Shown: positions 1,491 through 17,867 of the stretch, piece by piece
Layout of the letters: every line of letters starts with the position of its first letter
Position numbering within the stretch: the stretch's first letter is position 1
Virus record (IMG/VR): IMGVR_UViG_3300044294_000233
DNA length: 17,867 bases
DNA from: a virus
Lineage: Duplodnaviria > Heunggongvirae > Uroviricota > Caudoviricetes
Reading direction: 5' to 3' (one strand)
Made by a program: the position numbers and the translations under genes
Notes under the pieces: model-generated
What the model was told of the DNA's origin: nothing
Seen by the model: only the letters and a program-made list of their open reading frames with translations
Database searches by the model: none

Positions 1491-3137
1491 AACCTAGCAG
1501 TGACGCAGACACAGCAGAACAGACGCCCGTATGGTCCGTCTCGCCCGCCAACCCCTACCCCTTCAGAGAGCGTGATCCGCCGTGACGGTGAGATCCGTTT
1601 CTTCATGGACGAGGAGTCAAACACCCCCTTCATCCAAAACGTTCAGGTTCCGACCGAGAACCCGGACCCGCCGTTTTCCGTTCAGAACTACAAGGGTTAT
1701 TCCCCCGATCCGAACTCACCACAGGCGCTCGCGGCCAACTGCATGGCTACGCTCTGCTCGGCCCAAAGGATGTTGAAGAAGTACCTCGGCACGCTCCCGA
1801 AGTGGGCGGCGGTCAAAGTTCTTCGCGTTTACCCGAACGCCGGGAACCAGTTGAACGCCTTCTACAATCGCGAGTCGTTGCAGTTCTTCACGGGCCGGAA
1901 CCCTGTGAACGGGCAGGTGGTCCACACCTGTTTGTCGAACGACGTGGTCACCCACGAATTCTTTCACTCGGTACTTGACTCTTTGAAGCCCGTGCTGTTC
2001 AATACTCCATTCATTGAACAGGGTGCGTTTCACGAAGCGTTCGCCGACTGCGGCTCGATCCTGCATGCGATGTCGATTGACCCGGTTTTGACCTATACTG
2101 CACAGCAGATGGACGCGGCCCAAAGCAGTACCATTGCGTCGTCCGTAGCACCGGATCTGGGCTATGCGATCAACGGGGTGATCGGCGGGCTGCGTGACGC
2201 TTCGGTTCCGTACTACTACATCGATCCGGCCACACTGCCGAGATCTGCGCCGAAGAACCAGTTGTCCAGCGAGGTCCACAGTTTCAGCCGCGTGTTCAGC
2301 AGTGCGTTTTACGCTGCGATCATGGCCGTTTACGCCAAAGTGAAGGCACCGGGCGGTATCGGCACACGCGAAGCACTGATCATCGCACGCGACGAAATGG
2401 CTACGGTTTTGTTCCGTGCGGTACAAAACGCCCCGCTGACTCCGAGGTACATGGCTTCAATTGCGAGTACCATGTTGACAGAACTCGCTACCGGGCCTTA
2501 CGCAACTGAAGTTGCGAGCGTTTTTGCGACGTGGGGGTTGACCACGGTTCGTGCGGCCTCGACCGAAAGCGTCGAGGTTTTGCCGACCGACAAGGCTGTG
2601 AAGATCGGCGATCAGGATTTCTTGATTCGCGAAAAAAGCACTCAGATGGTACTGGCGGATACAATGATTGTCGGTCAGTCTGACAATCCGCTGTACTTCT
2701 GTAAGGTTGATGTCCCGCACGAGCAACTTTTGGTCGCTCAGGGCTTCGGCATGGCGGGGTTCGTAGACGGCGCAGAAGACGAGGAAATTCTCGATGAAGT
2801 TAAACTTGGTCTTGACTATATTTGGGAGTCGGACCTAGTAACCCTTCACGGGGAGCCGGTCAAGGACCACCACGTTTTCAAGGTTGATGAATCAGGCTCG
2901 CTGCTGAGGACCAGCTATAATTCCGACGACGGCTACTTCAACAACGCCACCTTGCCCGGTGCGCCAGAGTTTGGTAAGCCGTGGAAACCAGAAAACAATT
3001 CGGGGTGTTGCTCCGGTTGTAAGAAGAAAGTAGACCCTCCAGTTCGTCCACCGAAACTGGGGTGCTACGTCAACGAACGAGTGTGCGGCTCTCGTACTGT
3101 GCGAAGCTGCCAAGTCGTCCGTCAAAAGGTGTGTTAA
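1476..3137 (+). CDS. M4 thermolysin-family-like zinc metallopeptidase with Pro-rich N-terminus and Cys-rich C-terminal tail, 553 aa
   Basis: RBS GGAGG 4 nt before the ATG. Motifs NAFYNRESLQFFTG, VVTHEFFHSV (HExxH) and EQGAFHEAFADCGS (third-ligand Glu, ExxxD), with EVHSF downstream, parallel thermolysin NAFWNG / VVAHELTH / NEAISD / GGVHIN. No signal peptide visible. C-terminal tail is CCSGCKKK...C...C...C...C. Confidence 0.65.
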   Translation: METKKNLAVTQTQQNRRPYGPSRPPTPTPSESVIRRDGEIRFFMDEESNTPFIQNVQVPTENPDPPFSVQNYKGYSPDPNSPQALAANCMATLCSAQRMLKKYLGTLPKWAAVKVLRVYPNAGNQLNAFYNRESLQFFTGRNPVNGQVVHTCLSNDVVTHEFFHSVLDSLKPVLFNTPFIEQGAFHEAFADCGSILHAMSIDPVLTYTAQQMDAAQSSTIASSVAPDLGYAINGVIGGLRDASVPYYYIDPATLPRSAPKNQLSSEVHSFSRVFSSAFYAAIMAVYAKVKAPGGIGTREALIIARDEMATVLFRAVQNAPLTPRYMASIASTMLTELATGPYATEVASVFATWGLTTVRAASTESVEVLPTDKAVKIGDQDFLIREKSTQMVLADTMIVGQSDNPLYFCKVDVPHEQLLVAQGFGMAGFVDGAEDEEILDEVKLGLDYIWESDLVTLHGEPVKDHHVFKVDESGSLLRTSYNSDDGYFNNATLPGAPEFGKPWKPENNSGCCSGCKKKVDPPVRPPKLGCYVNERVCGSRTVRSCQVVRQKVC

Positions 3138-3157
3138 CCAACCCAGAGAGGGCTATC

Positions 3158-3496
3158 ATGGCAGCTTTCCCAGAAGACGATTACAAGAACCGGAACGCGA
3201 TGTCGTCCGGCGTTCCCGGCGGATTCGGCGGGGGCGTCGATGACGATGATGACTTCGACGGCGACCTAGACGACGATGACGACGACTGGGACGACGACGA
3301 TGATCTCGATGACGATGACGATGACGATGACGACTTCGATGACGAAGACGACGATGACGACTGGGATGATGACGACGACTTCGATGACGAAGACGATGAC
3401 GACCTAGACGACGATGACGACTGGGATGATGACGATGACGATGACGACGACGACGACTTCGATGACGATGACGACGACGATGACGTGAACTTCTGA
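3158..3496 (+). CDS. Extreme poly-aspartate acidic protein (about 80% Asp, aromatic/Leu residue every 6-10 residues), 112 aa
   Basis: ATG 3158 is in frame with track ORF 3062..3496 and is preceded by GAGAGGG 5 nt upstream. Sequence is MAAFPEDDYKNRNAMSSGVPGGFGGGV followed by about 85 aa of D with spaced F/W/L. It lies 20 nt after the peptidase stop on the same strand, and the next gene starts 8 nt after its own stop. Confidence 0.5.
   Translation: MAAFPEDDYKNRNAMSSGVPGGFGGGVDDDDDFDGDLDDDDDDWDDDDDLDDDDDDDDDFDDEDDDDDWDDDDDFDDEDDDDLDDDDDWDDDDDDDDDDDFDDDDDDDDVNF
3230..3490. repeat. Low-complexity GAY-codon (GAC/GAT) tract encoding poly-Asp
   Basis: Near-continuous gacgatgacgac... with interspersed tgg/ttc/cta codons. 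Slippage-prone. Confidence 0.8.
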
Positions 3497-3504
3497 GAGG
3501 CGCA

Positions 3505-4137
3505 ATGATCGCGGCTTTGGAGTTCTACATTCGCAGTACAGATCTTCGTAACAACCTTCCGGTCCCTTGCTCTTTCTGCCTGGAAAGCGAGCGTGGCGAC
3601 CGGAAGGTTGTTACTTTGAACGACGCTTATCGCCACCCCGATCAGATCGCGGTCAGGCAATGGAATCTCACCGAGTGCGAAGACAATCAATCGCTCCCAA
3701 CTATTCAGGAACGGATCATTCCACGCGGCGAGGTTTTTATCAGTGATGCGGTGATCATTCCCAACCACCGGCTTCTCAATTTGGTCAACGGTATCGGCAT
3801 ACCGAGCGGCCTCAATTTCCGAAACAAGCCCATGCCGGCCGATCAGTACACTCGGTTCTACGACAAGCTTCTGTCGATGGAATCTCAACTCTTCATCAAA
3901 GAGACGTGGGTCTGGCGAGAGTTCATCAGGGTTTATTTGCCTTTGATGTACACTCTGATTTACAGCGAGCGGGACGAGTTCGACCGGCTCAGAGAAATCA
4001 TGTCGATGATCCCGACCAACCAGCCGGAATTGTGGCATAAGTGGTTGAGGTGGAAGAAGTACATGCTCGATATGCCGGGCGTTCCGGGCGAAATCCTCTT
4101 CTACAAAGAATACGGGTCCGTCTTCCGCTTCGTGTGA
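3505..4137 (+). CDS. Hypothetical Trp-rich protein, 210 aa
   Basis: RBS GAGAGG 5 nt upstream of the ATG. GC3-biased codon usage like other plus-strand genes. The overlapping minus-strand ORF 3181..4152 looks like an antisense artefact. Confidence 0.55.
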   Translation: MIAALEFYIRSTDLRNNLPVPCSFCLESERGDRKVVTLNDAYRHPDQIAVRQWNLTECEDNQSLPTIQERIIPRGEVFISDAVIIPNHRLLNLVNGIGIPSGLNFRNKPMPADQYTRFYDKLLSMESQLFIKETWVWREFIRVYLPLMYTLIYSERDEFDRLREIMSMIPTNQPELWHKWLRWKKYMLDMPGVPGEILFYKEYGSVFRFV

Positions 4138-4138
4138 C

Positions 4139-4408
4139 TCACGGGTTGACACCCAGTTCTTTGGCCCTATACATGTTCCGTTTTATTAGGTCGCGGTCGT
4201 CGTAGCTCGGTTGTGTGATCTCTCGCGGCGGCTTTTTGCGTTTCTTCTCTTTGCCGAACTGTTCTTCTTTGCCGGGTGGTCTGGCACCTTTGGTGTTGCC
4301 GGCAATGGGTGCGTTCGGTCCCAACATGATTTGGACCGGAGGCGCGGGTGCGGTTCCCCACGAATCGCCCGCCGTCTCTCTCATTTTGACGTACTCGGCG
4401 AAGGTCAT
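4139..4408 (-). CDS. Small basic Gly/Pro/Lys-rich protein, 89 aa (start chosen at internal ATG with RBS)
   Basis: Internal Met54 of track ORF 4139..4567 is preceded by CAGGAGAAACC (GGAG 6 nt upstream). The longer ORF would run into the start of divergent gene 4460. KEKKRKKPPRE basic patch. Confidence 0.45.
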   Translation of the reverse strand: MTFAEYVKMRETAGDSWGTAPAPPVQIMLGPNAPIAGNTKGARPPGKEEQFGKEKKRKKPPREITQPSYDDRDLIKRNMYRAKELGVNP

Positions 4409-4448
4409 TGGTTTCTCCTGAAATCTCCAAAACGTCATTCGTACTAAC

Positions 4449-4474
4449 TTATATACGGCATGGAAACCAAGAAA
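4449..4474 (+). promoter_or_regulatory. Shared 5' module copy 2: TTATATAC-GGC-ATGGAAACCAAGAAA
   Basis: TATATAC sits 4 nt upstream of the ATG with no SD. The 15-nt identity with 1476-1490 is observed directly. Confidence 0.35.
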
Positions 4475-4990
4475 CCCTGGCCCGGCATCATGACGATTCT
4501 TTCTCTCGAACAGGTCCGCGACGGCTGCGTGATCTACCGCGAGGAGAACGTACTCAACACACTCCACTTTCTGGGCGAGCAGTTCCTTTTGAACGCCCTG
4601 TTCCTGGGCGGCAACGCGCCGAACACATACATCCCCAACAACTACTACTTGGGGTTGGACAACAGGACGATTCTGGCAATTGGCGATACGATGGAGAGCT
4701 TGCAGAACGAGCCGTTCATCAACGGGTATTCACGTCAGCCGGTCAATTCTACGACCGGCTTCTCGATGACGGTTTCGGGCGGGGTGCATCAGGTGTCGAG
4801 TCAGATCGTGACCTTCTCGGCGGTCGGCGGGAGTTGGGGACCGTGCAGCAACATCTTCTTGTCAGATAAACCAAACACGACGGGCGTATTGATCAGCAGC
4901 GCGAAGCTGACGAATCCGGTAACGGTTCAGTCTGGGGACTCGGTGAACATGCGGATGGGCATGTCACTTCGGTACTGCCCCGCCAGTTGA
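4460..4990 (+). CDS. Hypothetical protein, 176 aa, begins METKK like gene 1476
   Basis: Good GC3 codon bias over the whole ORF. No SD; TATATAC lies only 4 nt upstream, so possibly a leaderless or short-leader mRNA. The first 15 nt are identical to the first 15 nt of gene 1476. Confidence 0.55.
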   Translation: METKKPWPGIMTILSLEQVRDGCVIYREENVLNTLHFLGEQFLLNALFLGGNAPNTYIPNNYYLGLDNRTILAIGDTMESLQNEPFINGYSRQPVNSTTGFSMTVSGGVHQVSSQIVTFSAVGGSWGPCSNIFLSDKPNTTGVLISSAKLTNPVTVQSGDSVNMRMGMSLRYCPAS

Positions 4991-5408
4991 CGGAGTCCCA
5001 GAAATACTCCCAGTCCCGAATCTCGACGTAGTGAAGCACCTTGCTCTTTTTGCCGTTGGGGGCTTCGACCACTTGGAGTTGTTTGAACTTGAGCCAGCCC
5101 ATCCCCTCTTTGTTTCCCAGTCTCTTGTAATCCGGCGTTTCCTCGTCGTCGGGCTTCGGTTGCGTCAGGTTGATCCTGTAGCCGCTCGGCGTAACGGCAA
5201 CCATCAGGGTCTTCGGTTCGTTGGTGACCGTGTACTGACAGAACACTTCTCGCGCCGGTGCCGATCCCTTGTTGTCATCGAACCACACCGGGATGCTGAT
5301 GCCGATAGCCGCAACTTGCTGGCGTTCCTCTACCAGAGTTTTTCGCTGCTCCGGGGTCAGATAGATGACGTGGTTGACGATCAACAGCTTTTCTTTCTGC
5401 TCGAACAT
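4893..5408 (-). CDS. Hypothetical protein, 171 aa, co-transcribed downstream of the nuclease (possible recombination partner)
   Basis: Strong RBS GGAGGA 6 nt upstream of ATG 5408. Stop of upstream gene is at 5412. Its 3' end overlaps convergent gene 4460..4990 by 98 nt. Confidence 0.6.
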   Translation of the reverse strand: MFEQKEKLLIVNHVIYLTPEQRKTLVEERQQVAAIGISIPVWFDDNKGSAPAREVFCQYTVTNEPKTLMVAVTPSGYRINLTQPKPDDEETPDYKRLGNKEGMGWLKFKQLQVVEAPNGKKSKVLHYVEIRDWEYFWDSVNWRGSTEVTCPSACSPSPQTEPLPDSSASRC

Positions 5409-6232: not shown

Positions 6233-6260
6233 ATTATACCCTTTGATTCGGATTAGTCAT
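6233..6260 (-). promoter_or_regulatory. Sigma70-like promoter (-10 TATAAT, -35 ATGACT, 16-bp spacer) for the nuclease operon, overlapping the divergent primase start codon
   Basis: Minus strand reads ATGACT-N16-TATAAT, then 17 nt to ATG 6215 containing GGAGG. The perfect -10 hexamer is the reverse complement of 6233-6238. Confidence 0.4.
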
Positions 6261-7293
6261 GGCAATTGATTTCGGTCGATTCAAACACTGGGTGCAGGAC
6301 CGTTTCCCCGACGCCATTGTCAAGGGGAAAGAGATCCGCATCAACTCCATTTTCGAGTCCGACCACAACTACCACCTCTGGTGCAGTCCGTCTGGCGGTA
6401 AAAAGAAACGCGCGAACGGCGTGTTCCACTGCTTCAAGACGGACAACAAAGGGTCGCTCGTCAAGCTCGTCATGTTGGTTGACAAGATCCCCTACGACGA
6501 AGCCTCGGCCATTTTGAAGGGGGAAGCCAACCTCGGCGAACTCGAACGTCAGGTCGAAGAACTGATGGAAGCGGCCGACCGGCCGTTCATCGAGAACAAA
6601 CCCAAAGTTCGCATCTCCCTGCCGGACGAGTGCTACGCCATCGACGGGTTGCGCGGCTGGTGGGGCGACAAGGCCCGTGAGTACCTCGCCGAACGCAAGA
6701 TCCCGCACGACGGGCTTTACATCTGCACCGGCGGCAAGTACAAGGCACGGATCATCCTACCGTATTACGACCGGGATGGCGATCTCTGTTATTTCAACGG
6801 TCGTCACATCGGCAAATCCAAGTTGAAGTATCTCGGCCCGGAGAAAGAGATCGGCGTCGGCAAGGAAGACGTGGTCTTCATGCCGGGAGGCGTTTGGCCC
6901 GCTCTTGGCTCGACCGTTCACCTCTGCGAAGGCGAGTTCAACAGCAAGAGCCTGTCGCTGTGCGGTTTCAACGGGGCGGCGGCGGGCGGCAAAAACCTGA
7001 GCGAGAAGCAGGCCGTTCTGCTCAAGGACTACAAGCTTGTCATCTGTCTGGACCGCGACAAGGCGGGCGAAAAGGGTTCGATGGCAATGGCTCAGAAGAT
7101 CATGAGCATCAGTCTGCGGTTCGGCAAAGACAAGTTGAGACTGGTTCAACCGCCGGAAGGGTACAACGACTGGAACGACATGTTGAAGAAATTCGGCACG
7201 AAGATTCTCTATGAGTATGTCCTTCGCGCCGAAACCACACTCGACAGTGAGTCGCCGTTCGGCGCGGCTGCTTACTCAGCTAGGTTGAAATGA
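6259..7293 (+). CDS. DnaG-type DNA primase (N-terminal Zn-binding region plus TOPRIM domain), 344 aa
   Basis: HNYHLWCSPSGG...HCFKTD Cys/His zinc-ribbon-like region. TOPRIM signatures VHLCEGEFNSKSL (catalytic Glu) and LVICLDRDKAGEKG (DxD). No helicase domain. Confidence 0.75.
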   Translation: MAIDFGRFKHWVQDRFPDAIVKGKEIRINSIFESDHNYHLWCSPSGGKKKRANGVFHCFKTDNKGSLVKLVMLVDKIPYDEASAILKGEANLGELERQVEELMEAADRPFIENKPKVRISLPDECYAIDGLRGWWGDKAREYLAERKIPHDGLYICTGGKYKARIILPYYDRDGDLCYFNGRHIGKSKLKYLGPEKEIGVGKEDVVFMPGGVWPALGSTVHLCEGEFNSKSLSLCGFNGAAAGGKNLSEKQAVLLKDYKLVICLDRDKAGEKGSMAMAQKIMSISLRFGKDKLRLVQPPEGYNDWNDMLKKFGTKILYEYVLRAETTLDSESPFGAAAYSARLK

Positions 7294-7646
7294 AAGAAGC
7301 TCTCGAAAACCTCAAATACTTTGTCGGCAAGGCCGTCAGCATCTTCACCGGACCCATCAACCGCGACTTTGACGAGCGACAGAAGTGCGACTACTTCGTC
7401 GGGATCGTCAAGTCGGTCGATTCGATGGGAATTATGACGCAGCACCCCATTACGGGCTGCTGCAACTACTATTTCTACAGCCAGATCGTCGGCATCGCCG
7501 AAGAACAGATTCTGGATTCTGCCAATCCCGAACACGCCACGGTCATTGCCGAAATCGAAGCAAAACGGCGGATGGCTACTACGCCCCCGCCGTCGAATAA
7601 TTTGGTCGATGTCAATGCCTTGTCCAAACTGGCCGGACTCCATTAA
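7290..7646 (+). CDS. Hypothetical protein, 118 aa, translationally coupled to primase
   Basis: ATGA start/stop overlap with the primase gene at 7290-7293. Consistent codon usage. No recognisable domain. Confidence 0.5.
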   Translation: MKEALENLKYFVGKAVSIFTGPINRDFDERQKCDYFVGIVKSVDSMGIMTQHPITGCCNYYFYSQIVGIAEEQILDSANPEHATVIAEIEAKRRMATTPPPSNNLVDVNALSKLAGLH

Positions 7647-9331
7647 GACTCGCGATAGATCCTTTCCGACACCGCCCTCATCTTCTGTTTGAAACCCGAC
7701 ACACCTTCGCCGAAGTGCTTTTTGACCTCTTCGTCATCGTCTTCATAGGTTTTCTTCTTTTTCTTCTCGCTGGACATTGCTTGGATGTCTTTGTACTTAC
7801 CGGCCTCAATCAACTTCAAGAATTTTCTCCTTAAAGTCTTGCTATCGGATATGTGATCCCATGTGTCCATCAGCTTTTTCACCAGTTCACGATCCGTCTT
7901 GACAACCTTTTCAATTTTGGAGGCGAACTCTTCGTATTGGGGTTCGTAGAGCCGTTGTTGGACAGCAGCCGTTTCTGGATTGTCTTCAAAATTGTCGCTT
8001 TTATCGTGGGACGAAAGTGCTTTCAAGTCATCGAAGTCCGACCGCTTTTCGGTGTCCTTTGGGTTTTCATCGGACATATTGTGAATCTCGGCGCGGTCGC
8101 CAACCTCTGGCTTTTCGTCTTCCGAACGATGACCCTCTTCTTTGTCTTTTCTGAGAAGTCTTGCAATTCGTTTCGTAACCTTGTCTTCGGTATCGTCCGG
8201 TCGTTCGACACGACCAGCTAGATCCAACTGATTGAAAAATTCGGGATAGTATTTGCTGAGGATCTCGTGCCTCGGATCATCAATTCGCAATACTTTTGGC
8301 AAAGTAAACGGACCACTTTGGCTGCGGTTAGTTATCCGCTTGCCGTTGTTTCCGCGATTGTTATGCAGATTCTTTCGTTTGCCAAGTTTGTTCCACGGCT
8401 CGTGTATCGCTCGGAGAATCTCCTGTTCTCTGGTGTTCAGACCACTCCATGCGTCACCCTTCTTTTTCTTCTGCCTGAAAAGCTCCAAGTATCTGTTAGT
8501 CGCAGCGTGGATTTCTTTCAGTGGGTATTTGTCTTCAGCCGTGTCATTTTTCGGACAATGTCCAGAACGACAAGCACCAATAATAAGTCTTTTCTTGGAA
8601 TCATCGAGTTTTCCGAAGATACCAAAAGTGGTTCTGGTGTCTTTGAATATGCCAAATTTTTCAGCCTGCTTATCGAGAGTCAGTTCGGGTTTTTCGGCCG
8701 GTTTTAGCGGGGCTGTACTGCCGTCGTCTCCCTCATCATCGGCGGCAGACCCAGGCACGAAATCGTCATCATGCACAGTCGGCGTTCTTGGTTCCGGCGT
8801 CGGCTCCGGTGTCGGACGAGGCTTTTCGGGTGCTGGTGTACTGCCCACACGAGTTGCCATACTGCGAACGCGATTCATCATGTCGTCCAAACTGGACGCG
8901 ATGGTCTGACGGAGTCTGGCGGTCCAGTTGTTTAGGATCTTTCGGATCAGTGGTTGTGGTGCTGCGGAGGCGTCTTCCCACAGGGTGTCCGCGAGGTTTT
9001 TGAGCATCGCGTATTCGCGGACGGTGGGCGGTTCGAGGTCGGTGCGGCCGAGTGCGCCGATCTTGTTTTGCCAGTAGTACGGGTTGGAACGACGGTCGCT
9101 ACCGAACAGGTTCTTCCACCAGTTGTGAACGCGGGTAAAGAACCCTCGCTTGGAAGGCAGCTTGTCGTTCATGATCTGCGTTTGCAAATCGTTGACGAGT
9201 CCGACGACCTTCTGGTCCAGATTTCTTCTGACGGAAGCCAGTTGCTGGTAAAGAGCTTCTAGTTCGGAGGCGAAGTCCTTGCTCCCCTCGAAAAAGCTCA
9301 GTTGTTCGTACAAATCGATTGTTCTCAGCAT
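7643..9331 (-). CDS. Large hypothetical protein, 562 aa, with Pro-rich linker and K/E/D-rich C-terminal half encoded by an AT-rich segment
   Basis: Long ORF. Start ATG 9329-9331 is preceded by AGGGGGA. PTPEPTPEPRTPT linker. C-terminal half is low-complexity charged. 3' end overlaps convergent gene 7290..7646 by 4 nt. Confidence 0.65.
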   Translation of the reverse strand: MLRTIDLYEQLSFFEGSKDFASELEALYQQLASVRRNLDQKVVGLVNDLQTQIMNDKLPSKRGFFTRVHNWWKNLFGSDRRSNPYYWQNKIGALGRTDLEPPTVREYAMLKNLADTLWEDASAAPQPLIRKILNNWTARLRQTIASSLDDMMNRVRSMATRVGSTPAPEKPRPTPEPTPEPRTPTVHDDDFVPGSAADDEGDDGSTAPLKPAEKPELTLDKQAEKFGIFKDTRTTFGIFGKLDDSKKRLIIGACRSGHCPKNDTAEDKYPLKEIHAATNRYLELFRQKKKKGDAWSGLNTREQEILRAIHEPWNKLGKRKNLHNNRGNNGKRITNRSQSGPFTLPKVLRIDDPRHEILSKYYPEFFNQLDLAGRVERPDDTEDKVTKRIARLLRKDKEEGHRSEDEKPEVGDRAEIHNMSDENPKDTEKRSDFDDLKALSSHDKSDNFEDNPETAAVQQRLYEPQYEEFASKIEKVVKTDRELVKKLMDTWDHISDSKTLRRKFLKLIEAGKYKDIQAMSSEKKKKKTYEDDDEEVKKHFGEGVSGFKQKMRAVSERIYRES

Positions 9332-10733: not shown

Positions 10734-11744
10734 TTACTTTCGGGTTGACGCCTCGGCAGCGAGCAGACACCCACGAGCAACACTGTACAAGGTGTCCTGC
10801 GGACGGATCACTTCGCTCACCTTGATCGGCAGCTTGGCGTCGTCCAGAACAGTCTTGAACATTTCCACGAAACCGGGCGGCGAACTGGTCCCACCGGAAA
10901 CAACGATGTCGAACGGGTCGTCCGTCCTTACGACTTTGCTGTTCTTGTTCAGGCCGTTTTTGATTTCGGATACGCAGTGTTCGATCATCAGCCGGTACTG
11001 GCTGATGATCGCCCGTTCGATGAGGTCACCGGGAGCTTTCGAGAGATCGATCTTCATCTTCTGTTTGTTGATGAAGGTCGGCGACTCGGCAGTGGCTCGC
11101 GCCGCCTGCTTGTCGATCCAGTCTCCGCTGTTGACGATTGCGAAAGAGAAGACGGGGTTGCCGAACATGGCCATACACAGGTTGACCATACCGGCCCCGA
11201 AGCTGATCCCGATTCCCGTGTACGCCTTCTTCGACAGTTCGGCGTAAACGAGGGCGAGGGCTTCGTTAATCGGGTGCGGATCGACTCGCATTCCGTCCTT
11301 GTTCCTGAAGGCTTTGAAGATGCCTTCGAGCGTCAGGCGGTGGAAGTTCGCGTCCGTTTCGACGTTGATTGCGTTGGCCGGGACGCAGAAGTAGAGAGGC
11401 TCCTTGTCCTCCTTCACCGTCTCGATCAGCGAGTGGATCATGATGCTCAAGATCTGGTAGGCTTCCTTTTCCTTCGGGTTCACGCACCCGTCCGACATCG
11501 GCCGCTTCAACTCCATCGAGTTGATCGCGTAGGCCATCTTGACCGCCGACTCGCCGAGGGCGTAAGCCAACTTGTCCCTCTTGATCAGCGGGACACCAGC
11601 GTTATTCATCATGTTGTAGACGAAGTCGTTTTCGAGAGGAATCTCGATAAATGCGTTGACTTCGCGCTTGTGAACGAAGTTTCCCTTTTCGTCACGCTTG
11701 GAGCATACGAGGTTGTATGTGCCAACGTCAAATCCGATTGCCAT
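10734..11744 (-). CDS. Actin-fold ATPase (ParM/MreB/FtsA-like), 336 aa
   Basis: Phosphate-1 MAIGFDVGTYNLV. Phosphate-2 GIGISFGAGMVNL. Adenosine motif DIVVSGGTSSPPGF. C-terminal YSVARGCLLAA, like MreB ...CVARGTG. Start taken at Met21, which is preceded by AAAGGGTGA; the track start at 11804 has no RBS. Confidence 0.7.
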   Translation of the reverse strand: MAIGFDVGTYNLVCSKRDEKGNFVHKREVNAFIEIPLENDFVYNMMNNAGVPLIKRDKLAYALGESAVKMAYAINSMELKRPMSDGCVNPKEKEAYQILSIMIHSLIETVKEDKEPLYFCVPANAINVETDANFHRLTLEGIFKAFRNKDGMRVDPHPINEALALVYAELSKKAYTGIGISFGAGMVNLCMAMFGNPVFSFAIVNSGDWIDKQAARATAESPTFINKQKMKIDLSKAPGDLIERAIISQYRLMIEHCVSEIKNGLNKNSKVVRTDDPFDIVVSGGTSSPPGFVEMFKTVLDDAKLPIKVSEVIRPQDTLYSVARGCLLAAEASTRK

Positions 11745-11778
11745 GTCTTTCACCCTTTCGTTTTGAGGTCTTTCGATC

Positions 11779-12033
11779 TCACTTGTCGTACTTTCCGAAT
11801 TCAATCGTTTCGGTGGATGGTGTGAACTCAGGTATCATCCACTCTGCTGCCTCTGCGGGCTTCGGTGCCATCTGCTTTTGCTCAGGCACCTGATCCGCAC
11901 TCGCTACCGACGCCACAGACATTCCCACCACACCGCCACCAAGATTCAGATTCAGGTCGATTACCAACCTGACCGTTATCTCTCCGTCGCGGGTCGTGAT
12001 GTTCACGTTCTGTGGTTTGATAACTTGAGGCAT
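11779..12033 (-). CDS. Small hypothetical protein, 84 aa, immediately upstream of actin-like gene
   Basis: ORF with weak RBS-like AGGTAA. Plausible codon usage. Position is analogous to an adaptor or regulator gene of a segregation module, but no motif was recognised. Confidence 0.4.
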   Translation of the reverse strand: MPQVIKPQNVNITTRDGEITVRLVIDLNLNLGGGVVGMSVASVASADQVPEQKQMAPKPAEAAEWMIPEFTPSTETIEFGKYDK

Positions 12034-13156: not shown

Positions 13157-13735
13157 TCAGCTTGTCGGGGTGCTGCGGATCGTGAGGATGACCTGCACGG
13201 TTGCCGTGGTCGCGCCGGAAGCGGTGTTGTTGAACTCCAAGCGGCTGATGACGGCATCGCCGATGTTGAAGGTCTTGGTTTCGTTCGCCGAGAGGTCGAA
13301 GATGGCCGTCGAAAGACCGTTCATCTTCACGCGGATCGCCTGACCACTCGTGTTCTCGATGCTCGCCGAAACAGCCGCCGCGCCGTTGTCGCCCGTTACA
13401 TCGATCACGTTCGATGCGTACACAGAACCGCCAGCGATGGTCAGGTCGTAAACACGAGGGAAGGTGTTCTCAGCCGGGTCACTGGAGTAAATGCTGCCGT
13501 CGTCGGTCACGACTTCGATGAACGCCTTTTCCAGAGTCGTCTGCGGGTACGCGAACTGCTTCCAATAGTTGCAGTCCGTGAAGGTTTCACCGTCGAAAAG
13601 TTGACGGTAAGTCTTGTTCGGGCCGGTGACCCACATCGTCCGCTGAATCGACGGCGACATCTGTGCGCCAGTGGACGGGTTAAGGTCCAATACGCCCTGC
13701 TGAGTGTTGTTCAGCTTTACACGAAATACGCTCAT
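13157..13735 (-). CDS. Hypothetical small protein, 192 aa, candidate abundant virion structural protein
   Basis: Start at Met19 of track ORF, preceded by AAGGAGAACA (AGGAG 5 nt upstream). Followed by a strong intrinsic terminator, a layout typical of highly expressed structural genes. Ser/Thr/Asn-rich. Confidence 0.55.
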   Translation of the reverse strand: MSVFRVKLNNTQQGVLDLNPSTGAQMSPSIQRTMWVTGPNKTYRQLFDGETFTDCNYWKQFAYPQTTLEKAFIEVVTDDGSIYSSDPAENTFPRVYDLTIAGGSVYASNVIDVTGDNGAAAVSASIENTSGQAIRVKMNGLSTAIFDLSANETKTFNIGDAVISRLEFNNTASGATTATVQVILTIRSTPTS

Positions 13736-13789
13736 TGTTCTCCTTGATGGGGTGCCTAATCCCTGTCTTCTGTCTATATGTAGAAGCAC

Positions 13790-14404
13790 TCAAATAGAAA
13801 TCACCGCACCCCACGGACAGATTACGCGGAAGAAGCCCGTCCCCAATCCGGTGTCGCACAGGTGCGTCATTTTGCCTTCGAGTGCGGCCGACCAAACAGC
13901 GACCGATTCGACCCCTACAACGACGCCCGCGTCACGCCAGTCACAGTCCTCTCGGACGACGTACCCCTGGCTGGCGTACTTCTTGGTCAGCTTTGTTTTT
14001 TCTTCTTCTGTAAGTGAGCGGGTAGGCGATATGCCTTCCGCCGCCAGCTTGACGAGTCTGTTTTCCGTGTCCGGTTTGTGTCCGGTTGGGTTGATCTTGA
14101 TTCCCGAATCATTGAAGAACTGCTGGACAGGGTGTGATTTCATGTCGCATCGGATCTCTTTGATATGTCCGAATTGTGTCCCCCACGGTTCCCTGACCAT
14201 CTGAAACGCCGCCTTTTCGGAGACGAACCGTTCTCCGTTGCACAGGTGTTCTTTGCACCCTATATACACTTGCAATCCGGGCAGTTGTTGTTCGGCTTGT
14301 GGCCGAAGGCCATCGAGTAGTGTGACGTATTCGTCGCACGGCCCGAAGTAGCACACACAGTATTTGTTTTTGACTTCGCGGTAACGCGGCAGGTGAAGAT
14401 TCAT
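13790..14404 (-). CDS. Hypothetical Cys-containing protein, 204 aa
   Basis: Start at Met30 (MNLHL) of the track ORF, preceded by TTGGAGTCCGAC (GGAG 7 nt upstream). Contains CVCYFGPC and CKEHLC motifs. Confidence 0.5.
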   Translation of the reverse strand: MNLHLPRYREVKNKYCVCYFGPCDEYVTLLDGLRPQAEQQLPGLQVYIGCKEHLCNGERFVSEKAAFQMVREPWGTQFGHIKEIRCDMKSHPVQQFFNDSGIKINPTGHKPDTENRLVKLAAEGISPTRSLTEEEKTKLTKKYASQGYVVREDCDWRDAGVVVGVESVAVWSAALEGKMTHLCDTGLGTGFFRVICPWGAVISI

Positions 14405-14624
14405 GTCGGACTCCAATCTGATCAAAGAAACGATGGACGATTTCTTCAGTAATTTTGGCGCGGCCGATGACCCGCATGCGAAATTACTCATTCAAATGGT
14501 GCTGGCCGAGGCTCTGCGTCCTGGCAACAAAAACAACAATCGATTTTGGGTGAAGTGCGATGCGAATGTTGAGAAATGTCCCGTCGTGCCGCATACAATA
14601 GTTCATGGGAAAACCGTGGTCTGA
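14403..14624 (+). CDS. Small hypothetical ORF, 73 aa, at the left edge of the AT-rich homing-endonuclease island
   Basis: AT-shifted codon usage like the HE gene. Its end overlaps the HE start by 20 nt. It is in the same frame (coordinate mod 3 = 0) as ORF 15462..15821. Weak call. Confidence 0.3.
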   Translation: MSDSNLIKETMDDFFSNFGAADDPHAKLLIQMVLAEALRPGNKNNNRFWVKCDANVEKCPVVPHTIVHGKTVV

Positions 14625-15465
14625 ATCCGAGTTGGAATTACTTCGTCAGCTTGGGCCGTCAAAACATTCGACTGAATTAATTGATTGCTTGCCGGGCCAT
14701 ACTGCACCTGCCATTGCCAAGATGAGGAACAGAATCGGCGTAGTTATTACGGCTGAGTGTCGTTCTAGGTCTGGCGAAAAGGCCGCTCGGTTTCGCAATG
14801 GCTGCAAACTCGACCAAAACCTTTCCTTGTCTGATTTTGACGACTGCGTTTTTCAGGTACTGATCGGCAGTATGTTGGGCGATGGTTGTGTGACCAAAAG
14901 CGACGACTGCAAAAACTACTTCTTCTGCGAAGGACATGGTTCCAAACAGACTGATTACCTCGAATGGAAAATGAACATCCTGTCGCCTTTCATGTCGCGA
15001 TGGAATTCAAACAAAAAGACGCACATTTCTACGGCCCGTCATCCGATATTTACTTCATTGAGAGATCGATTCTACAAGGCCAGGAAAAACTGCGACAAAA
15101 GCATAATTCCAGTAGACTTGATTTCCAAGCTGAATTTTTTCGGGTTGATGATTTGGTACATGGACGATGGCTACCTGGGGACTACCAGAACCGGCCGTCT
15201 TAGCAATGGACTCAAAAAATCGCCACAACCTTCAATATCAGCCAAAGGATGGGATCGTATCGACTTGGAGAACGCGGTGTCCATTTTGAATCAAAACTTA
15301 GATCTATCAATGTACATCAAGTATTACAAACACAGAAATGGTCAGAACAAGTTAGTTATGCTTGGCAAAAGCAGAGACTTCTTGCTGTCTAAATGGAAGA
15401 CAATTTCACAAGAACGTAAACTGCCGGCTTGTATGTCGTACAAGCTAGAATGCGAGGTTTGATGA
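14405..15465 (+). mobile_element. AT-rich island carrying the homing endonuclease gene (free-standing HEG or intron-like insertion)
   Basis: Local drop in GC and codon bias against a high-GC background, coinciding with the HE ORF and the small upstream ORF. Confidence 0.4.
14605..15462 (+). CDS. LAGLIDADG homing endonuclease (two-motif, monomeric type) with N-terminal Myb/HTH-like extension, 285 aa
   Basis: Two LAGLIDADG motifs: VLIGSMLGDGCV and FFGLMIWYMDDGYL. N-terminal WSESELELLRQL resembles a Myb/SANT-like helix. Codons are markedly more A/T-ending than surrounding genes. A stop lies immediately upstream in frame. Confidence 0.8.
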   Translation: MGKPWSESELELLRQLGPSKHSTELIDCLPGHTAPAIAKMRNRIGVVITAECRSRSGEKAARFRNGCKLDQNLSLSDFDDCVFQVLIGSMLGDGCVTKSDDCKNYFFCEGHGSKQTDYLEWKMNILSPFMSRWNSNKKTHISTARHPIFTSLRDRFYKARKNCDKSIIPVDLISKLNFFGLMIWYMDDGYLGTTRTGRLSNGLKKSPQPSISAKGWDRIDLENAVSILNQNLDLSMYIKYYKHRNGQNKLVMLGKSRDFLLSKWKTISQERKLPACMSYKLECEV

Positions 15466-15821
15466 GTCGTTGTTACCTGTATCTGGCGCGGCGGGACAAA
15501 ATGGGGGCCAGAGTGGTCACGGTGCTGGACGGCCCGCAGCGACCGCCAATCCGACTCGTTGATCTGGAATCTCTGAAACTGCCCCCGACGATTCATGCGA
15601 GTGTCGAGAAGATCATTTACGACAATCGCATGTATTGGGAGCCGTGGATCGAGTCGGCCGAACACTACCAAGAGTTGAGGAAGAAACTACACGCCAGGGG
15701 TTTTCAAGGGCTGTATCCGAGTTGCAAACCCTTGTTCGACGGCACCTCTTTCTTGCTGCCGCCGAAGGCCGACCTGAAGAAGCACCCGAAGAAGAAGACG
15801 ATGTTGACGAGGAAGTCTTAG
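15462..15821 (+). CDS. Hypothetical protein, 119 aa, Lys-rich C-terminus; start overlaps HE stop (TGATG)
   Basis: Start at Met12 of track ORF 15429..15821, so it does not overlap the HE body. Codon usage back to the GC-rich style. Confidence 0.4.
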   Translation: MSRCYLYLARRDKMGARVVTVLDGPQRPPIRLVDLESLKLPPTIHASVEKIIYDNRMYWEPWIESAEHYQELRKKLHARGFQGLYPSCKPLFDGTSFLLPPKADLKKHPKKKTMLTRKS

Positions 15822-16093
15822 CGGACGCTTTTCCGGTTGGTGTAGAACGTGCCTGCCCCCGCGTCGATCAACAGGTGGTCCCCGTCTTGACTGATCACAG
15901 TTCCGCCCTTGCGGTAGAACTGCCTTACGGACTCGTACAGGTCGCCCTGATCGGACTCCGCGACCTGTAACAGCTTCTTGGGCGACAACGCCGAAGACAC
16001 TCTCTTGCCTTCGAGGTTCTTGGACCCGGCGTCCTGGCCTTCGATCCACTTTCTGAAATCGCTAAGTGACAATGGGTGTTTACCCTTTTCCAT
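15818..16093 (-). CDS. Hypothetical protein, 91 aa
   Basis: ORF starting 5 nt after the stop of upstream gene 16098..16937. GGAG lies just upstream, though the spacing is short. Ends with a 4-nt convergent overlap with gene 15462..15821. Confidence 0.45.
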   Translation of the reverse strand: MEKGKHPLSLSDFRKWIEGQDAGSKNLEGKRVSSALSPKKLLQVAESDQGDLYESVRQFYRKGGTVISQDGDHLLIDAGAGTFYTNRKSVR

Positions 16094-16097
16094 ACTC

Positions 16098-16937
16098 CTA
16101 CTTTCCCTGGAAGAAACGGCTCAAATCCTCCAGGGGTATATACGTTGCAACCTTCAACTTCGGGCCGACCGAGTGCTGTACCGTCTTGCAGCCGTTGTTT
16201 TGAGACAGCCAATACAGATTGCCGTCGATCAGTTTGTTTGCGGTCAGGTGCTGTGGATAGTACCACTTCCCGTCCTCACTCTGCTCGCTGCCCTGCCTCT
16301 GCTCATCGAACGCTTCGTCGCAGAAAGCCAGAGCCAGCTTCTGAACCCCGAACTTGTGCAGAAGGTTGATGGCGGCACAAACCGGGTTGCGGTAGTCATC
16401 GATCTTGTACTTACAGTCCCTGTTCTCGACCCCGCAGTACCATGCGTCACTCGACGGACAGTACCTGTACTTCATTCCGGTGTAGCCCTTCAAGAACTCG
16501 CTGTTCGCGCGAGTCGAAGCGATACACTTGGTCGTCGTTGACCTCGGTAGATAGCTCTGAGCTTCCGAATAAGGGTTGTTGACGACGTAGAAATTGGGAC
16601 TTCTTTTTGTCGATTTCCATTTGGACAAACTCCCGTTGACCGCGAAGATCAACACGTCCTTCGGCAAGGCCGCGATTTGCTCGTGACCCGACTCGAAGTC
16701 GAAGCCGTCCGAAACGATTACCGCCTTGTTGACGCTCAAATTCTCCGTGTCGATCCACGGGTACTTGGCCCGCATCGACCACTGCTCGTTCTTGAGGATC
16801 AGCGGGTAGTCGGCGGTTGACAAAAGTCGGTTGATGTCTTTGTACGGAACCCCGCTGACGCCGGGGTTCCGTACCCACAAGTCGTCTCCGACGTGCAGGT
16901 ACTGGTTCTTGTTCGCGTGTTTTTTCAGTCTGTACAC
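16098..16937 (-). CDS. Hypothetical protein, 279 aa; tentative resemblance to DUF115 / MptE-like (Maf-like) putative transferase family
   Basis: GTG start with GGAGGTAAG immediately upstream. Segment KAVIVSDGFDFES...LIFAVNGS loosely matches the aivvgsGPS ... iifavN signature of that family. The family assignment is low-confidence. Confidence 0.5.
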   Translation of the reverse strand: MYRLKKHANKNQYLHVGDDLWVRNPGVSGVPYKDINRLLSTADYPLILKNEQWSMRAKYPWIDTENLSVNKAVIVSDGFDFESGHEQIAALPKDVLIFAVNGSLSKWKSTKRSPNFYVVNNPYSEAQSYLPRSTTTKCIASTRANSEFLKGYTGMKYRYCPSSDAWYCGVENRDCKYKIDDYRNPVCAAINLLHKFGVQKLALAFCDEAFDEQRQGSEQSEDGKWYYPQHLTANKLIDGNLYWLSQNNGCKTVQHSVGPKLKVATYIPLEDLSRFFQGK

Positions 16938-16938
16938 C

Positions 16939-17867
16939 TTACCTCCTACACGGTACGAATCTGACGCACTGGCCCTCGCCCTCGTCGTCGCTGAGTAGTT
17001 TGCTCATGTCGAGTTCGACCTTGTGCGTGATCGGGTCGCCACGGTACACCATTTCCACTTCCGGCTTCTCTGGCAGGACCAAGTGGATCGCGGTCGGGAC
17101 GTTGCTGACCAAGTGGATCGCGGTCGGCGCACCCACCAGTTGGATCGATTCAGGTACGCCCACCAACTCCATCATCAGCTTCCTCGGCACGTCCTCGGCC
17201 ATTCGCAATTCGATGAACTCAGGTACGTCCTTGTTCTTCAAGAAAATGAATTCCGGTACGTTAGTCGCCCTCAGTTCAAAGAACTCAGGCAGGTTGTGTT
17301 TCAAAGAGATCTCGTTCGGAATCGGCGTCTCGGCCTTGATTTCGATGTAGGTCGGCAACGTGGTTCCGCGAACCTCGATGAACATTGGCAGATCGTGTAC
17401 CAGTCTCATGTCCGGTATTTCCGGCACCACGACCTTGATCTCGGACGGGATGCCGATGTCTTGCGCGGTTACCAGCGGAGGGTCCGACTGGAAGCTGTCA
17501 ACGAAGCTCTCCTCGAACCCGCCCGACATCATCGCCATCGGCGTCACCGACGTACTTCCGCAACTGACCGTGACCACGCAACTCAGAACCGGCACCGGGT
17601 TCCAGTTCACGTCGATTACCGTGGGGACGTTCGCGTTGTATGCGAAGATTGAAGTCGGGATGTTGATGTTGTACCCCAAGATCGAAGTCGGGATATTGAC
17701 GTTGTATGCCAAGATCGAAGTCGGGATATTGACGTTGTACGCCAAGATCGAAGTCGGGATGTCAACGTTGTACGCCAAGATCGAGGTCGGGAAAGACCCG
17801 TAGACGTTGATCGAGGTCGGGAAAGATCCGTAGACGTTAATCGTTGTCGGGATGTTCGCGTAAACAT
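16939..17867 (-). CDS. Tandem-repeat protein (11-aa repeats (A/G)YN(V/I)NIPTSIL, then degenerate 11-12 aa xPEFIELRxxx repeats), 5' end beyond window; probable fiber or beta-solenoid structural protein
   Basis: The frame stays open to the window edge. The track Met at 17778 is internal. At least eight 11-aa repeats are visible (VYGSFPTSIN, AYNVDIPTSIL, AYNVNIPTSIL, ...). Its stop is 1 nt before the start of the next gene. Confidence 0.6.
   Translation of the reverse strand, partial: VYANIPTTINVYGSFPTSINVYGSFPTSILAYNVDIPTSILAYNVNIPTSILAYNVNIPTSILGYNINIPTSIFAYNANVPTVIDVNWNPVPVLSCVVTVSCGSTSVTPMAMMSGGFEESFVDSFQSDPPLVTAQDIGIPSEIKVVVPEIPDMRLVHDLPMFIEVRGTTLPTYIEIKAETPIPNEISLKHNLPEFFELRATNVPEFIFLKNKDVPEFIELRMAEDVPRKLMMELVGVPESIQLVGAPTAIHLVSNVPTAIHLVLPEKPEVEMVYRGDPITHKVELDMSKLLSDDEGEGQCVRFVPCRR
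17635..17867. repeat. 33-bp (and 30-bp) tandem DNA repeats, at least 7 units, coding for the 11-aa protein repeats
   Basis: Units such as gttgtatgccaagatcgaagtcgggatattgac recur head-to-tail with a few substitutions. They continue to the window edge. Confidence 0.8.

Follow-up and report, generated by a model that had tools for sequence, protein, structure and literature searches.

A probable free-standing LAGLIDADG homing-endonuclease element inserted at the start codon of a conserved huge-phage gene

When an endonuclease gene is found wedged between two short open reading frames (ORFs) that lie on its own strand and share one frame with each other, the question arises whether it occupies an intron that splits a single gene or stands free among genes that are separate. 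This question is posed by positions 13,790 to 15,821 of IMG/VR record IMGVR_UViG_3300044294_000233, a 17,867-nucleotide stretch of Caudoviricetes DNA (the whole stretch, at its full length, is called the window hereafter), in which a first-pass annotation made from the sequence letters had recognized a LAGLIDADG homing endonuclease and had left both readings open. The three ORFs concerned are all on the + strand, between genes on the − strand:

14403..14624, + strand: o73, a small native phage gene of 73 residues (from the ORF list, a hidden Markov model (HMM) search and DNA identity to the relatives L107 and L108)
14605..15462, + strand: the endonuclease ORF, 285 residues, with its own start and stop
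15462..15821, + strand: o119, a conserved phage gene with an invaded 5' end, 119 residues from its ATG (in the ORF list its start is TTG 15429)

The endonuclease ORF overlaps o73 by 20 nt, and its stop codon overlaps the o119 ATG by 1 nt (TGATG). We consider it probable that 14570..15473 is a free-standing homing-endonuclease element residing in a huge-phage genome, and that it inserted at the o119 start in a manner that destroyed its own site.

The element was delimited by comparison with L107 and L108, two loci found through their o119 homologues (80% and 75% identity), neither of which has the endonuclease. By blastn the window aligned to both at 75–82% nucleotide identity on either side of the element, the alignments breaking off at 14569 and resuming at 15474, and the subject coordinates were contiguous across this gap (2786|2786 in L107 and 4004|4004 in L108). 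Compared base by base, the empty site of these relatives reads ...GCGAATGT|ACCTGTATCTGGCGCG..., or in longer form ...GGGTGAAGTGCAATGCGAATGT|ACCTGTATCTGGCGCG..., with AATGTACCTGTATC as the empty junction sequence, and the insertion falls at AATGT|ACCTGTATCTGG, one base past the o119 start codon. Of the inserted DNA 904 bases are unambiguously foreign, and the net insertion is 905 bp, one T being shared at the junction. The comparison with endonuclease-less relatives that the first-pass annotation had proposed as a check has in this way fixed the insertion site to the base, and it resolves the locus into these parts:

14570..15473, + strand: the inserted mobile element (blastn and base-by-base comparison with the L107 and L108 empty sites)
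14560..14569, + strand: relic of the original o119 5' end, ATGCGAATGT, encoding M R M plus a T and now read in the o73 tail (empty-site comparison with L107 and L108)
14570..14604, + strand: the element leader, 35 nt (alignment of three leaders)
15462..15473, + strand: the element-borne new o119 5' end, ATGAGTCGTTGT, encoding MSRC (junction reading)

The element therefore sits within coding sequence, namely the 5' end of o119 plus the overlapping tail of o73, and both genes have been refitted by it. In L107 and L108, o119 is called from the ATG within AATGT (MYLYLARRDK), and other homologues use an ATG two codons upstream (MRMYLYL). In the window the native o119 sequence starts again at 15474 (TACCTGTATCTGG, encoding YLYLA...), and the N-terminus is now MSRC-YLYLARRDK, supplied by the last 12 bases of the element (an ATG and three in-frame codons). 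A GAGG lies 6–9 nt upstream of this replacement ATG, the same ATG that overlaps the endonuclease stop. The o119 protein begins with MSR followed by C or L in all three endonuclease-bearing lineages (ATGAGTCG) and in none of 24 other homologues; the two further lineages, represented by L002 and L005, share with the window the left junction (ATGnnnAATnT, then TGARAA) and have the replacement start ATGAGTCG as well (MSRL). On the other side, residues 1–56 of o73 (14403..14569) are native, their DNA being at least 80% identical, through 14569, to that of the small gene in L107 and L108, and the last 18 codons (14570..14624) are element-derived, so that the ...NV-PVSGATGQ... of the 84-residue L107 protein has become ...NV-EKCPVVPHTIVHGKTVV. 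It was a replacement start codon, without any splicing, that made the insertion harmless.

The leader in the window keeps the motif TGTCCCGTCGTGCC common to L002 and L005, but it lacks the TATAAT box and the AGGA ribosome-binding site that both of those have in a longer leader. When the three leaders were folded, the z-scores (+0.9, −0.3 and −1.1) showed no significant hairpin, which disposed of the idea that a regulatory hairpin masks the ribosome-binding site of the endonuclease. We also dropped the suspicion, raised by its 48% GC, that o73 is part of the cassette or was co-converted with it: the copy in endonuclease-less L107 has 42.5% GC, and homology is unbroken to 14569. In L002 the element is bracketed by a direct repeat of 7 nt, TATCTGT (3905..3911 and 4872..4878), and the piece of the o119 5' end kept at the left junction is 5–6 bases longer there than in the window; the repeat could be a remnant of the original staggered-cut insertion, or chance.

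The endonuclease itself scored well against known families. Its ORF matched Pfam LAGLIDADG_2 (PF03161) with an E-value of 4e-21 and 76 bits (cutoff 25), covering profile positions 1–155 of 168, and it matched PHROG 11023 (7e-10) over residues 81–195 only. We aligned the window protein with seven metagenomic relatives, and this eight-member alignment served as the family profile. Both motifs of the family lie in one chain, in agreement with the first-pass description of a monomeric two-motif LAGLIDADG enzyme:

14860..14886, + strand: LAGLIDADG motif 1, LIGSMLGDG, with putative catalytic Asp93 (by alignment, to LIGNILGD of I-WcaI)
15145..15171, + strand: LAGLIDADG motif 2, LMIWYMDDG, with putative catalytic Asp188 (by alignment, to AYWFMDDG of I-WcaI)

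Among the eight members, L91, G92, D93 and G94 are invariant in motif 1, as are L181, I183, W184, Y185, D187, D188 and G189 in motif 2, and D93 and D188 line up with the metal-binding aspartates of I-WcaI (in LGD and DDG, respectively). The family profile matched I-WcaI (7.5e-8) and I-SceI (1.5e-6) in the PDB. An AlphaFold model of the endonuclease had a predicted local distance difference test (pLDDT) score of 85 and a predicted template modelling (pTM) score of 0.72, and showed the pseudo-symmetric alpha-beta-beta-alpha-beta-beta-alpha double-domain fold; its best Foldseek matches were again I-WcaI and I-SceI (E-values of ~1e-8, probability 1.00, target-normalised TM scores of 0.62–0.66), and the top 50 matches were LAGLIDADG enzymes without exception. 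By sequence and modelled fold, then, the enzyme has all the features of the family and is an I-SceI/I-WcaI-like monomer, and by analogy it would be expected to cleave site-specifically a target of ~18–22 bp, leaving 4-nt 3' overhangs. One gene caller had picked TTG 14632 as its start (P0001, 276 residues); we place the start at ATG 14605 because W5, which the longer protein includes, aligns with a Trp in the six relatives that cover the N-terminus.

In front of the nuclease core lies a segment that the first-pass annotation had called DNA-binding-like. These ~80 residues are real, are kept in the relatives and are modelled as a three-helix bundle:

14617..14742, + strand: putative Myb/SANT-like three-helix domain, ~residues 5–46 (conserved pattern and AlphaFold model)

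The helices (residues 7–16, 22–25 and 34–43) were modelled with pLDDT 85–92, and the linker that follows (residues 50–70) with low confidence (pLDDT ~52–56). Conserved in the family are W5, the aromatic residue at the start of helix 1, and LP.HT..AI.K.R..LG, which together give residues 5–46 the pattern W..xE...L...LP.HT..AI..KR..LG. The N-terminus of the window protein by itself had no Pfam match, and the family profile matched c-Myb R3 weakly (E-value of 0.66); a paralogue (P0004) has three copies of the module, one of them just above the Pfam Myb_DNA-binding cutoff (25.4 vs 24.4 bits, E-value of 1.5e-5). We regard the identification of the module as a Myb/SANT-like domain of DNA-binding type as moderately supported by this pattern and the model.

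Several observations point to a foreign origin and to mobility. The endonuclease ORF has 44.8% GC against a mean of 53.9% for the window (standard deviation 2.9% in segments of 858 bp); among all segments of 858 bp, the one beginning at 14591 is the lowest in GC, with 0.3% of segments equally low, and the right edge of the patch is sharp, at ~15460. The element as delimited has a GC fraction of 0.449, against 0.525 and 0.558 in flanks of equal size. At third codon positions (GC3) the endonuclease has 52% in the window and 41% in L002, compared with 63–77% in their neighbours (six neighbouring genes in the case of the window); the L005 copy has 36%, near its neighbours (36–47%). The AT-rich, codon-atypical patch noted at first pass is thus the lowest-GC stretch of the window, and the contrast it was said to make is there, but the genome is just moderately GC-rich (54%) and not a high-GC one. 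This composition suggests that the element originated in, or long resided in, a phage of ~40% GC and that its amelioration here is incomplete.

The distribution of the element is patchy. The site is occupied in L001–L004 and in L005, with endonucleases 58–61% identical to that of the window, the order small ORF, endonuclease, 119-residue ORF on the + strand, and the same neighbours on the − strand; it is empty in L107, L108 and about 75 more distant loci. Over six flanking genes, protein identity of the window is 81.5% to each of the empty loci L107 and L108, and 66.7% to the occupied L002, so that nearer relatives are empty and a farther one is occupied. The first-pass annotation had named possession of the same enzyme by relatives as evidence against an insertion, and this turned out to be half the case: L001–L005 do carry it at the same site, and the closest relatives, L107 and L108, do not. 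Because these nearer relatives lack the element, its sharing with L001–L005 does not refute the horizontal insertion that the annotation had proposed. In addition, endonuclease identities (window–L002 58%, window–L005 61%, L002–L005 68%) do not follow those of the flanking proteins (57–78% for window–L002, and 29–54% for either of the two against L005); on these comparisons the two similarity patterns are incongruent. Incongruent similarity and foreign composition together lend indirect support to super-Mendelian inheritance (homing) as the way in which the element may have spread.

Other insertions were found at or near the same place. L085 differs from the 85%-identical L022 by a 966-bp insertion at the small-gene/o119 junction (2355..3320 of IMGVR_UViG_3300032462_000002), which carries both an HNH/EndoVII-type gene (phrog_3322, 5.6e-19) unrelated to the window endonuclease and a truncated second o119 copy (2313..2624, −). 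HNH-type genes lie between the small gene and o233, its divergent neighbour, in L002 (2976..3683, −) and L005 (5028..5510, −), and in L092 a 38%-identical Myb-LAGLIDADG gene (3830..4792, +) lies between o210 and a truncated o233. These comparisons mark the small-gene/o119 junction as an insertion hotspot. More distant family members (32–45% identical) are tightly packed free-standing genes beside unrelated genes (DHH phosphoesterase, CTP synthase and others) on other phage contigs. We noted in passing that the LYLYLARRDK-coding DNA of the second o119 copy in L085 is closer to that of the window than to that of L085's own o119, that L001 and L002 have two nearby GIY-YIG genes absent from the window, and that in L089 a 40%-identical family member (3208..5067) has genes for an IS605-type OrfB/TnpB and a Y1 transposase ~1.6 kb away.

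From these data we propose the following mechanism. The selfish element encodes one protein, an I-SceI-type monomeric nuclease fused to an N-terminal Myb/SANT-like helix-turn-helix domain, and it is lodged in a two-gene operon of o73 followed by o119, two genes that overlap each other where relatives lack the endonuclease. By reading into the element, o73 has acquired its new 18-residue tail, within which the endonuclease start lies. Expression of the enzyme would probably be low, depending on read-through from the o73 promoter or operon and on translational coupling. In a mixed infection the enzyme would, by analogy, cut the empty-site allele of a related phage. Characterised LAGLIDADG enzymes cut inside a ~20-bp recognition site at the insertion point, and because they work in this way we favour a target in the conserved DNA that codes for YLYLARRDK, where it would span the point of insertion, the predicted ~20-bp sequence being GCGAATGT|ACCTGTATCTGG. 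The right half-site, TAYCTNTAYCTGGC, which codes for the first β-strand YLYLA, is the most conserved DNA of the locus. Insertion would destroy the target and protect the carrier genome, and recombinational repair of the cut allele from the carrier would copy the element in. The reconstituted empty site had no match elsewhere in the window at up to 3 mismatches, and a metagenome scan with the 17-mer of the right half-site returned 88 matches, all attributable to chance, none of which encoded o119 or the endonuclease.

Some points weigh against this proposal. The predicted target derives from the insertion point alone, and where free-standing endonucleases of phages have been characterised, the cut is often hundreds of bases away from the gene for the enzyme (PMC2988022), so the target may lie elsewhere in o119 or in o233. 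The promoter-like and Shine-Dalgarno elements present in relatives are missing from the window copy, which may be poorly expressed or in decay. The endonuclease copy in L005 is frameshifted, which may be an assembly error, since this nanopore-derived contig is frameshifted in neighbouring genes too. Finally, one old insertion followed by losses might account for part of the pattern, given the common left junction in the three carrier lineages.

The gene can be read in two other ways. The enzyme could be active and free-standing and cut far from its insertion ("intronless homing", as with the Seg and Mob enzymes of T4), its Myb-like domain binding one site and its nuclease cutting another. Cutting at a distance is typical of free-standing phage endonucleases (PMC2988022), the two modules with their flexible linker resemble GIY-YIG and HNH enzymes, and the L092 enzyme is found ~1 kb away in the same neighbourhood. 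Set against this are the cutting of characterised LAGLIDADG enzymes at the insertion point, the fact that I-SceI and I-WcaI are the closest structures, and the position of the insertion in TACCTGTATCTGG, the DNA that is best conserved at this locus, and on balance we think cutting at a distance unlikely. The second possibility, for which we see little chance, is that of a domesticated or decaying LAGLIDADG protein, vertically inherited and immobile, perhaps a DNA-binding regulator that uses its Myb-like domain and saddle. The exact same junction in three lineages whose flanking proteins differ by 33–55% would fit such a history, as would the loss of the TATAAT and AGGA signals from the window copy and the o119 translation start that is now supplied by the element, so that a simple deletion cannot remove it. 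Against it stand the invariance of the catalytic Asp pair and of both motifs across the family, the absence of the element from the nearest relatives, a similarity at odds with that of the flanks and an unameliorated composition.

The intron posed at the outset, of group I (or II), would make exons of 14403..14624 and 15462..15821, and it owed its appeal to flanking ORFs that share strand and frame and touch the endonuclease ORF. The Rfam search proposed at first pass as a check for group I structure found no intron family in the window when gathering scores were applied; with the threshold relaxed to E ≤ 10 in the region 13700..16300, two chance-level matches to small nucleolar or small RNAs were all that appeared, and no group I model. 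The element has only 35 + 11 bases (46) outside the endonuclease ORF, too few to accommodate a ribozyme core. The flanks, moreover, are two conserved families. A scan of IMG/VR with an alignment of o279, a neighbouring gene, identified 80 loci on phage contigs of up to 532 kb (single-protein scans with o279 and with the endonuclease returned nothing, and the alignment-based scans succeeded), and about 75 IMG/VR huge-phage loci have the gene order o279b-o279-o91-(o119, opposite strand)-o233-o210-GT9 without the endonuclease, with the two flanking families as separate, overlapping genes. Directly upstream of o119 in essentially all loci is a small ORF family (core F..QFG..D.Y..I.LE.L.EEL), whose stop codon lies anywhere between 4 nt upstream and 167 nt downstream of the o119 start. 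An HMM of this small gene, trained on endonuclease-less loci alone and searched against 1070 ORFs, matched window o73 (2.2e-7), a 57-residue ORF of L005 (5.6e-15) and a 68-residue ORF of L001 (6.6e-4), and this family analysis rules out that o73 is a fragment, whether of o119 or of some split gene. Homologues of o119 were present in 78 of 85 syntenic loci, stand-alone in every case, and the 25 homologues found in databases were likewise all stand-alone (100–141 residues), with none fused. By homology, o73 and o119 are two separate native genes of a small operon and not exons. Although the coordinates, overlaps and shared frame reported at first pass all stood, the frame lost its value as a sign of an intron: the starts at 14403 and 15462 differ by 1059 (353 x 3), agreement of this kind is a 1-in-3 chance expectation and meaningless, and it is not kept by the L002 counterparts (3736 vs 4860, difference 1124). 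An intron is thus extremely improbable here. An intein-type endonuclease, in frame within a host protein, deserved a look since ~40% of phage LAGLIDADG genes were intein-borne in one survey (PMC10448857). The ORF, however, has its own start and stop and a frame that differs from those of both neighbours, a Pfam search found no Hint/intein domain in it, and its family is LAGLIDADG_2 (I-SceI type) and not the intein-associated LAGLIDADG_3; we give this reading next to no credence. With its own start and stop, no Hint domain, no intron and an empty site in relatives, the gene fits the free-standing alternative that the first-pass annotation had offered.

The genes next to the element are conserved with it or without it, and both lie outside it:

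13790..14404, − strand: o233, the conserved divergent neighbour, 204 residues from an internal ATG
15818..16093, − strand: o91, the conserved convergent neighbour (by synteny)

The 204-residue length of o233 is that given by gene callers in the identical contig L104, and syntenic homologues of o233 occur in ~70 loci. A CATG palindrome (14402..14405) contains the start codons of both o233 (−, 14404) and o73 (+, 14403), which have 2 nt in common, as they do in L107 too, and with zero intergenic DNA between them the promoter of each must sit within the coding sequence of the other. A promoter and terminator scan of 13700..16200 gave counts near shuffle expectation, and the + strand upstream of the endonuclease was empty. 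For o119, Pfam and PHROG searches returned no match, and its AlphaFold model had a pLDDT of 85, yet a PDB fold search with it found nothing at E < 1. The identical o119 protein occurs on contigs of up to 476 kb, which makes the source a huge phage. Searched in full by megablast against 50,697 GenBank phages, the window matched none of them, and it contains no tRNA.

Elsewhere in the window we observed a second low-GC patch (45–47%, 7500..8700) within a 562-residue ORF (7643..9331, −) that has no Pfam or PHROG match and is not an obvious endonuclease or intein. A tandem array at 17634..17792 consists of 4.8 copies of a 33-nt unit (88% match) and encodes AYNVNIPTSIL repeats at the N-terminus of the ORF at 16939..17778 (−), and a GAC/GAT-rich array of ~250 nt at 3238..3485 would, if translated, encode an acidic stretch rich in Asp. 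Two further genes have relatives on phage contigs of 225–532 kb: 6259..7293 (+), a Toprim/DnaG-like primase, and 10734..11804 (−), with a strong match to the actin-like Pfam family Volactin (5.7e-69), an actin homologue that may interest those who study the cell biology of huge phages.

The locus leaves the current understanding of homing endonucleases unchanged. It does show how a free-standing endonuclease is tolerated in overlapping coding sequences, by the re-supply of a start to one gene and of a tail to the other, and it is a ready test system, with occupied and empty alleles at ~80% nucleotide identity and an insertion point known to the base. Tentatively, and with more doubt than confidence, we suggest that the Myb-LAGLIDADG lineage might represent a third way, beside introns and inteins, of living in coding DNA, as a "start-codon-swapping" cassette whose replacement initiation region (GAGG plus ATGAGTCG) is coupled to the endonuclease stop. 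If so, the first codons of a conserved gene would be the target and the host gene would depend on the element, and through the Myb-like domain the enzyme might recognise more of its target than the LAGLIDADG saddle usually covers, or be directed to a different one. If the HNH element of L085 hit the same junction independently, the o119 5' end would be a multi-family homing hotspot in huge phages. A LAGLIDADG and Myb-like fusion from such phages could interest meganuclease engineers and researchers concerned with the influence of selfish nucleases on recombination boundaries in very large phage genomes.

Known systems resemble the element in part. I-SceI and I-WcaI belong to the same Pfam family, have one chain with two motifs and the LGD and DDG aspartates, and are the best profile and fold matches; they are encoded by group I introns of yeast mitochondria, whereas the window enzyme is phage-borne, not intron-encoded and only 19–22% identical to them, and I-SceI is without the Myb/SANT-like N-terminal domain (~50 residues) and linker that the window enzyme has. 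The nuclease core matches PHROG 11023, "homing endonuclease with LAGLIDADG motif", a description that takes in neither the Myb-like domain nor the huge-phage context. Among phages, the free-standing endonucleases of T4 are all GIY-YIG or HNH (PMC2988022), and a survey listed 20 phage LAGLIDADG genes, 8 of them intein-borne (PMC10448857), which bears out the first-pass remark that this class is a minority in phages. The Seg (GIY-YIG) and Mob (HNH) genes of T4-like phages are likewise selfish nuclease genes wedged between conserved operon genes and patchy among relatives, likewise have a DNA-binding module and a nuclease at opposite ends, and owe their expression to host transcripts that read through them (PMC2988022, PMC2790892). 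Unlike them, the window element is of the LAGLIDADG class and is not strictly intergenic, lying one base inside o119 and within the o73 tail. The nearest precedent for a free-standing endonuclease within a gene is mobE in nrdA of Aeromonas phage Aeh1, which also sits inside coding sequence without an intron or intein, host function being kept through new translation signals (PMC3045599); in our case, by contrast, the first one to three o119 codons were cut off and replaced, and the protein is whole, with no assembly from two polypeptides. Phage LAGLIDADG genes are already catalogued, and what is mildly unusual in this one is its Myb-like domain and the swap of the start codon.

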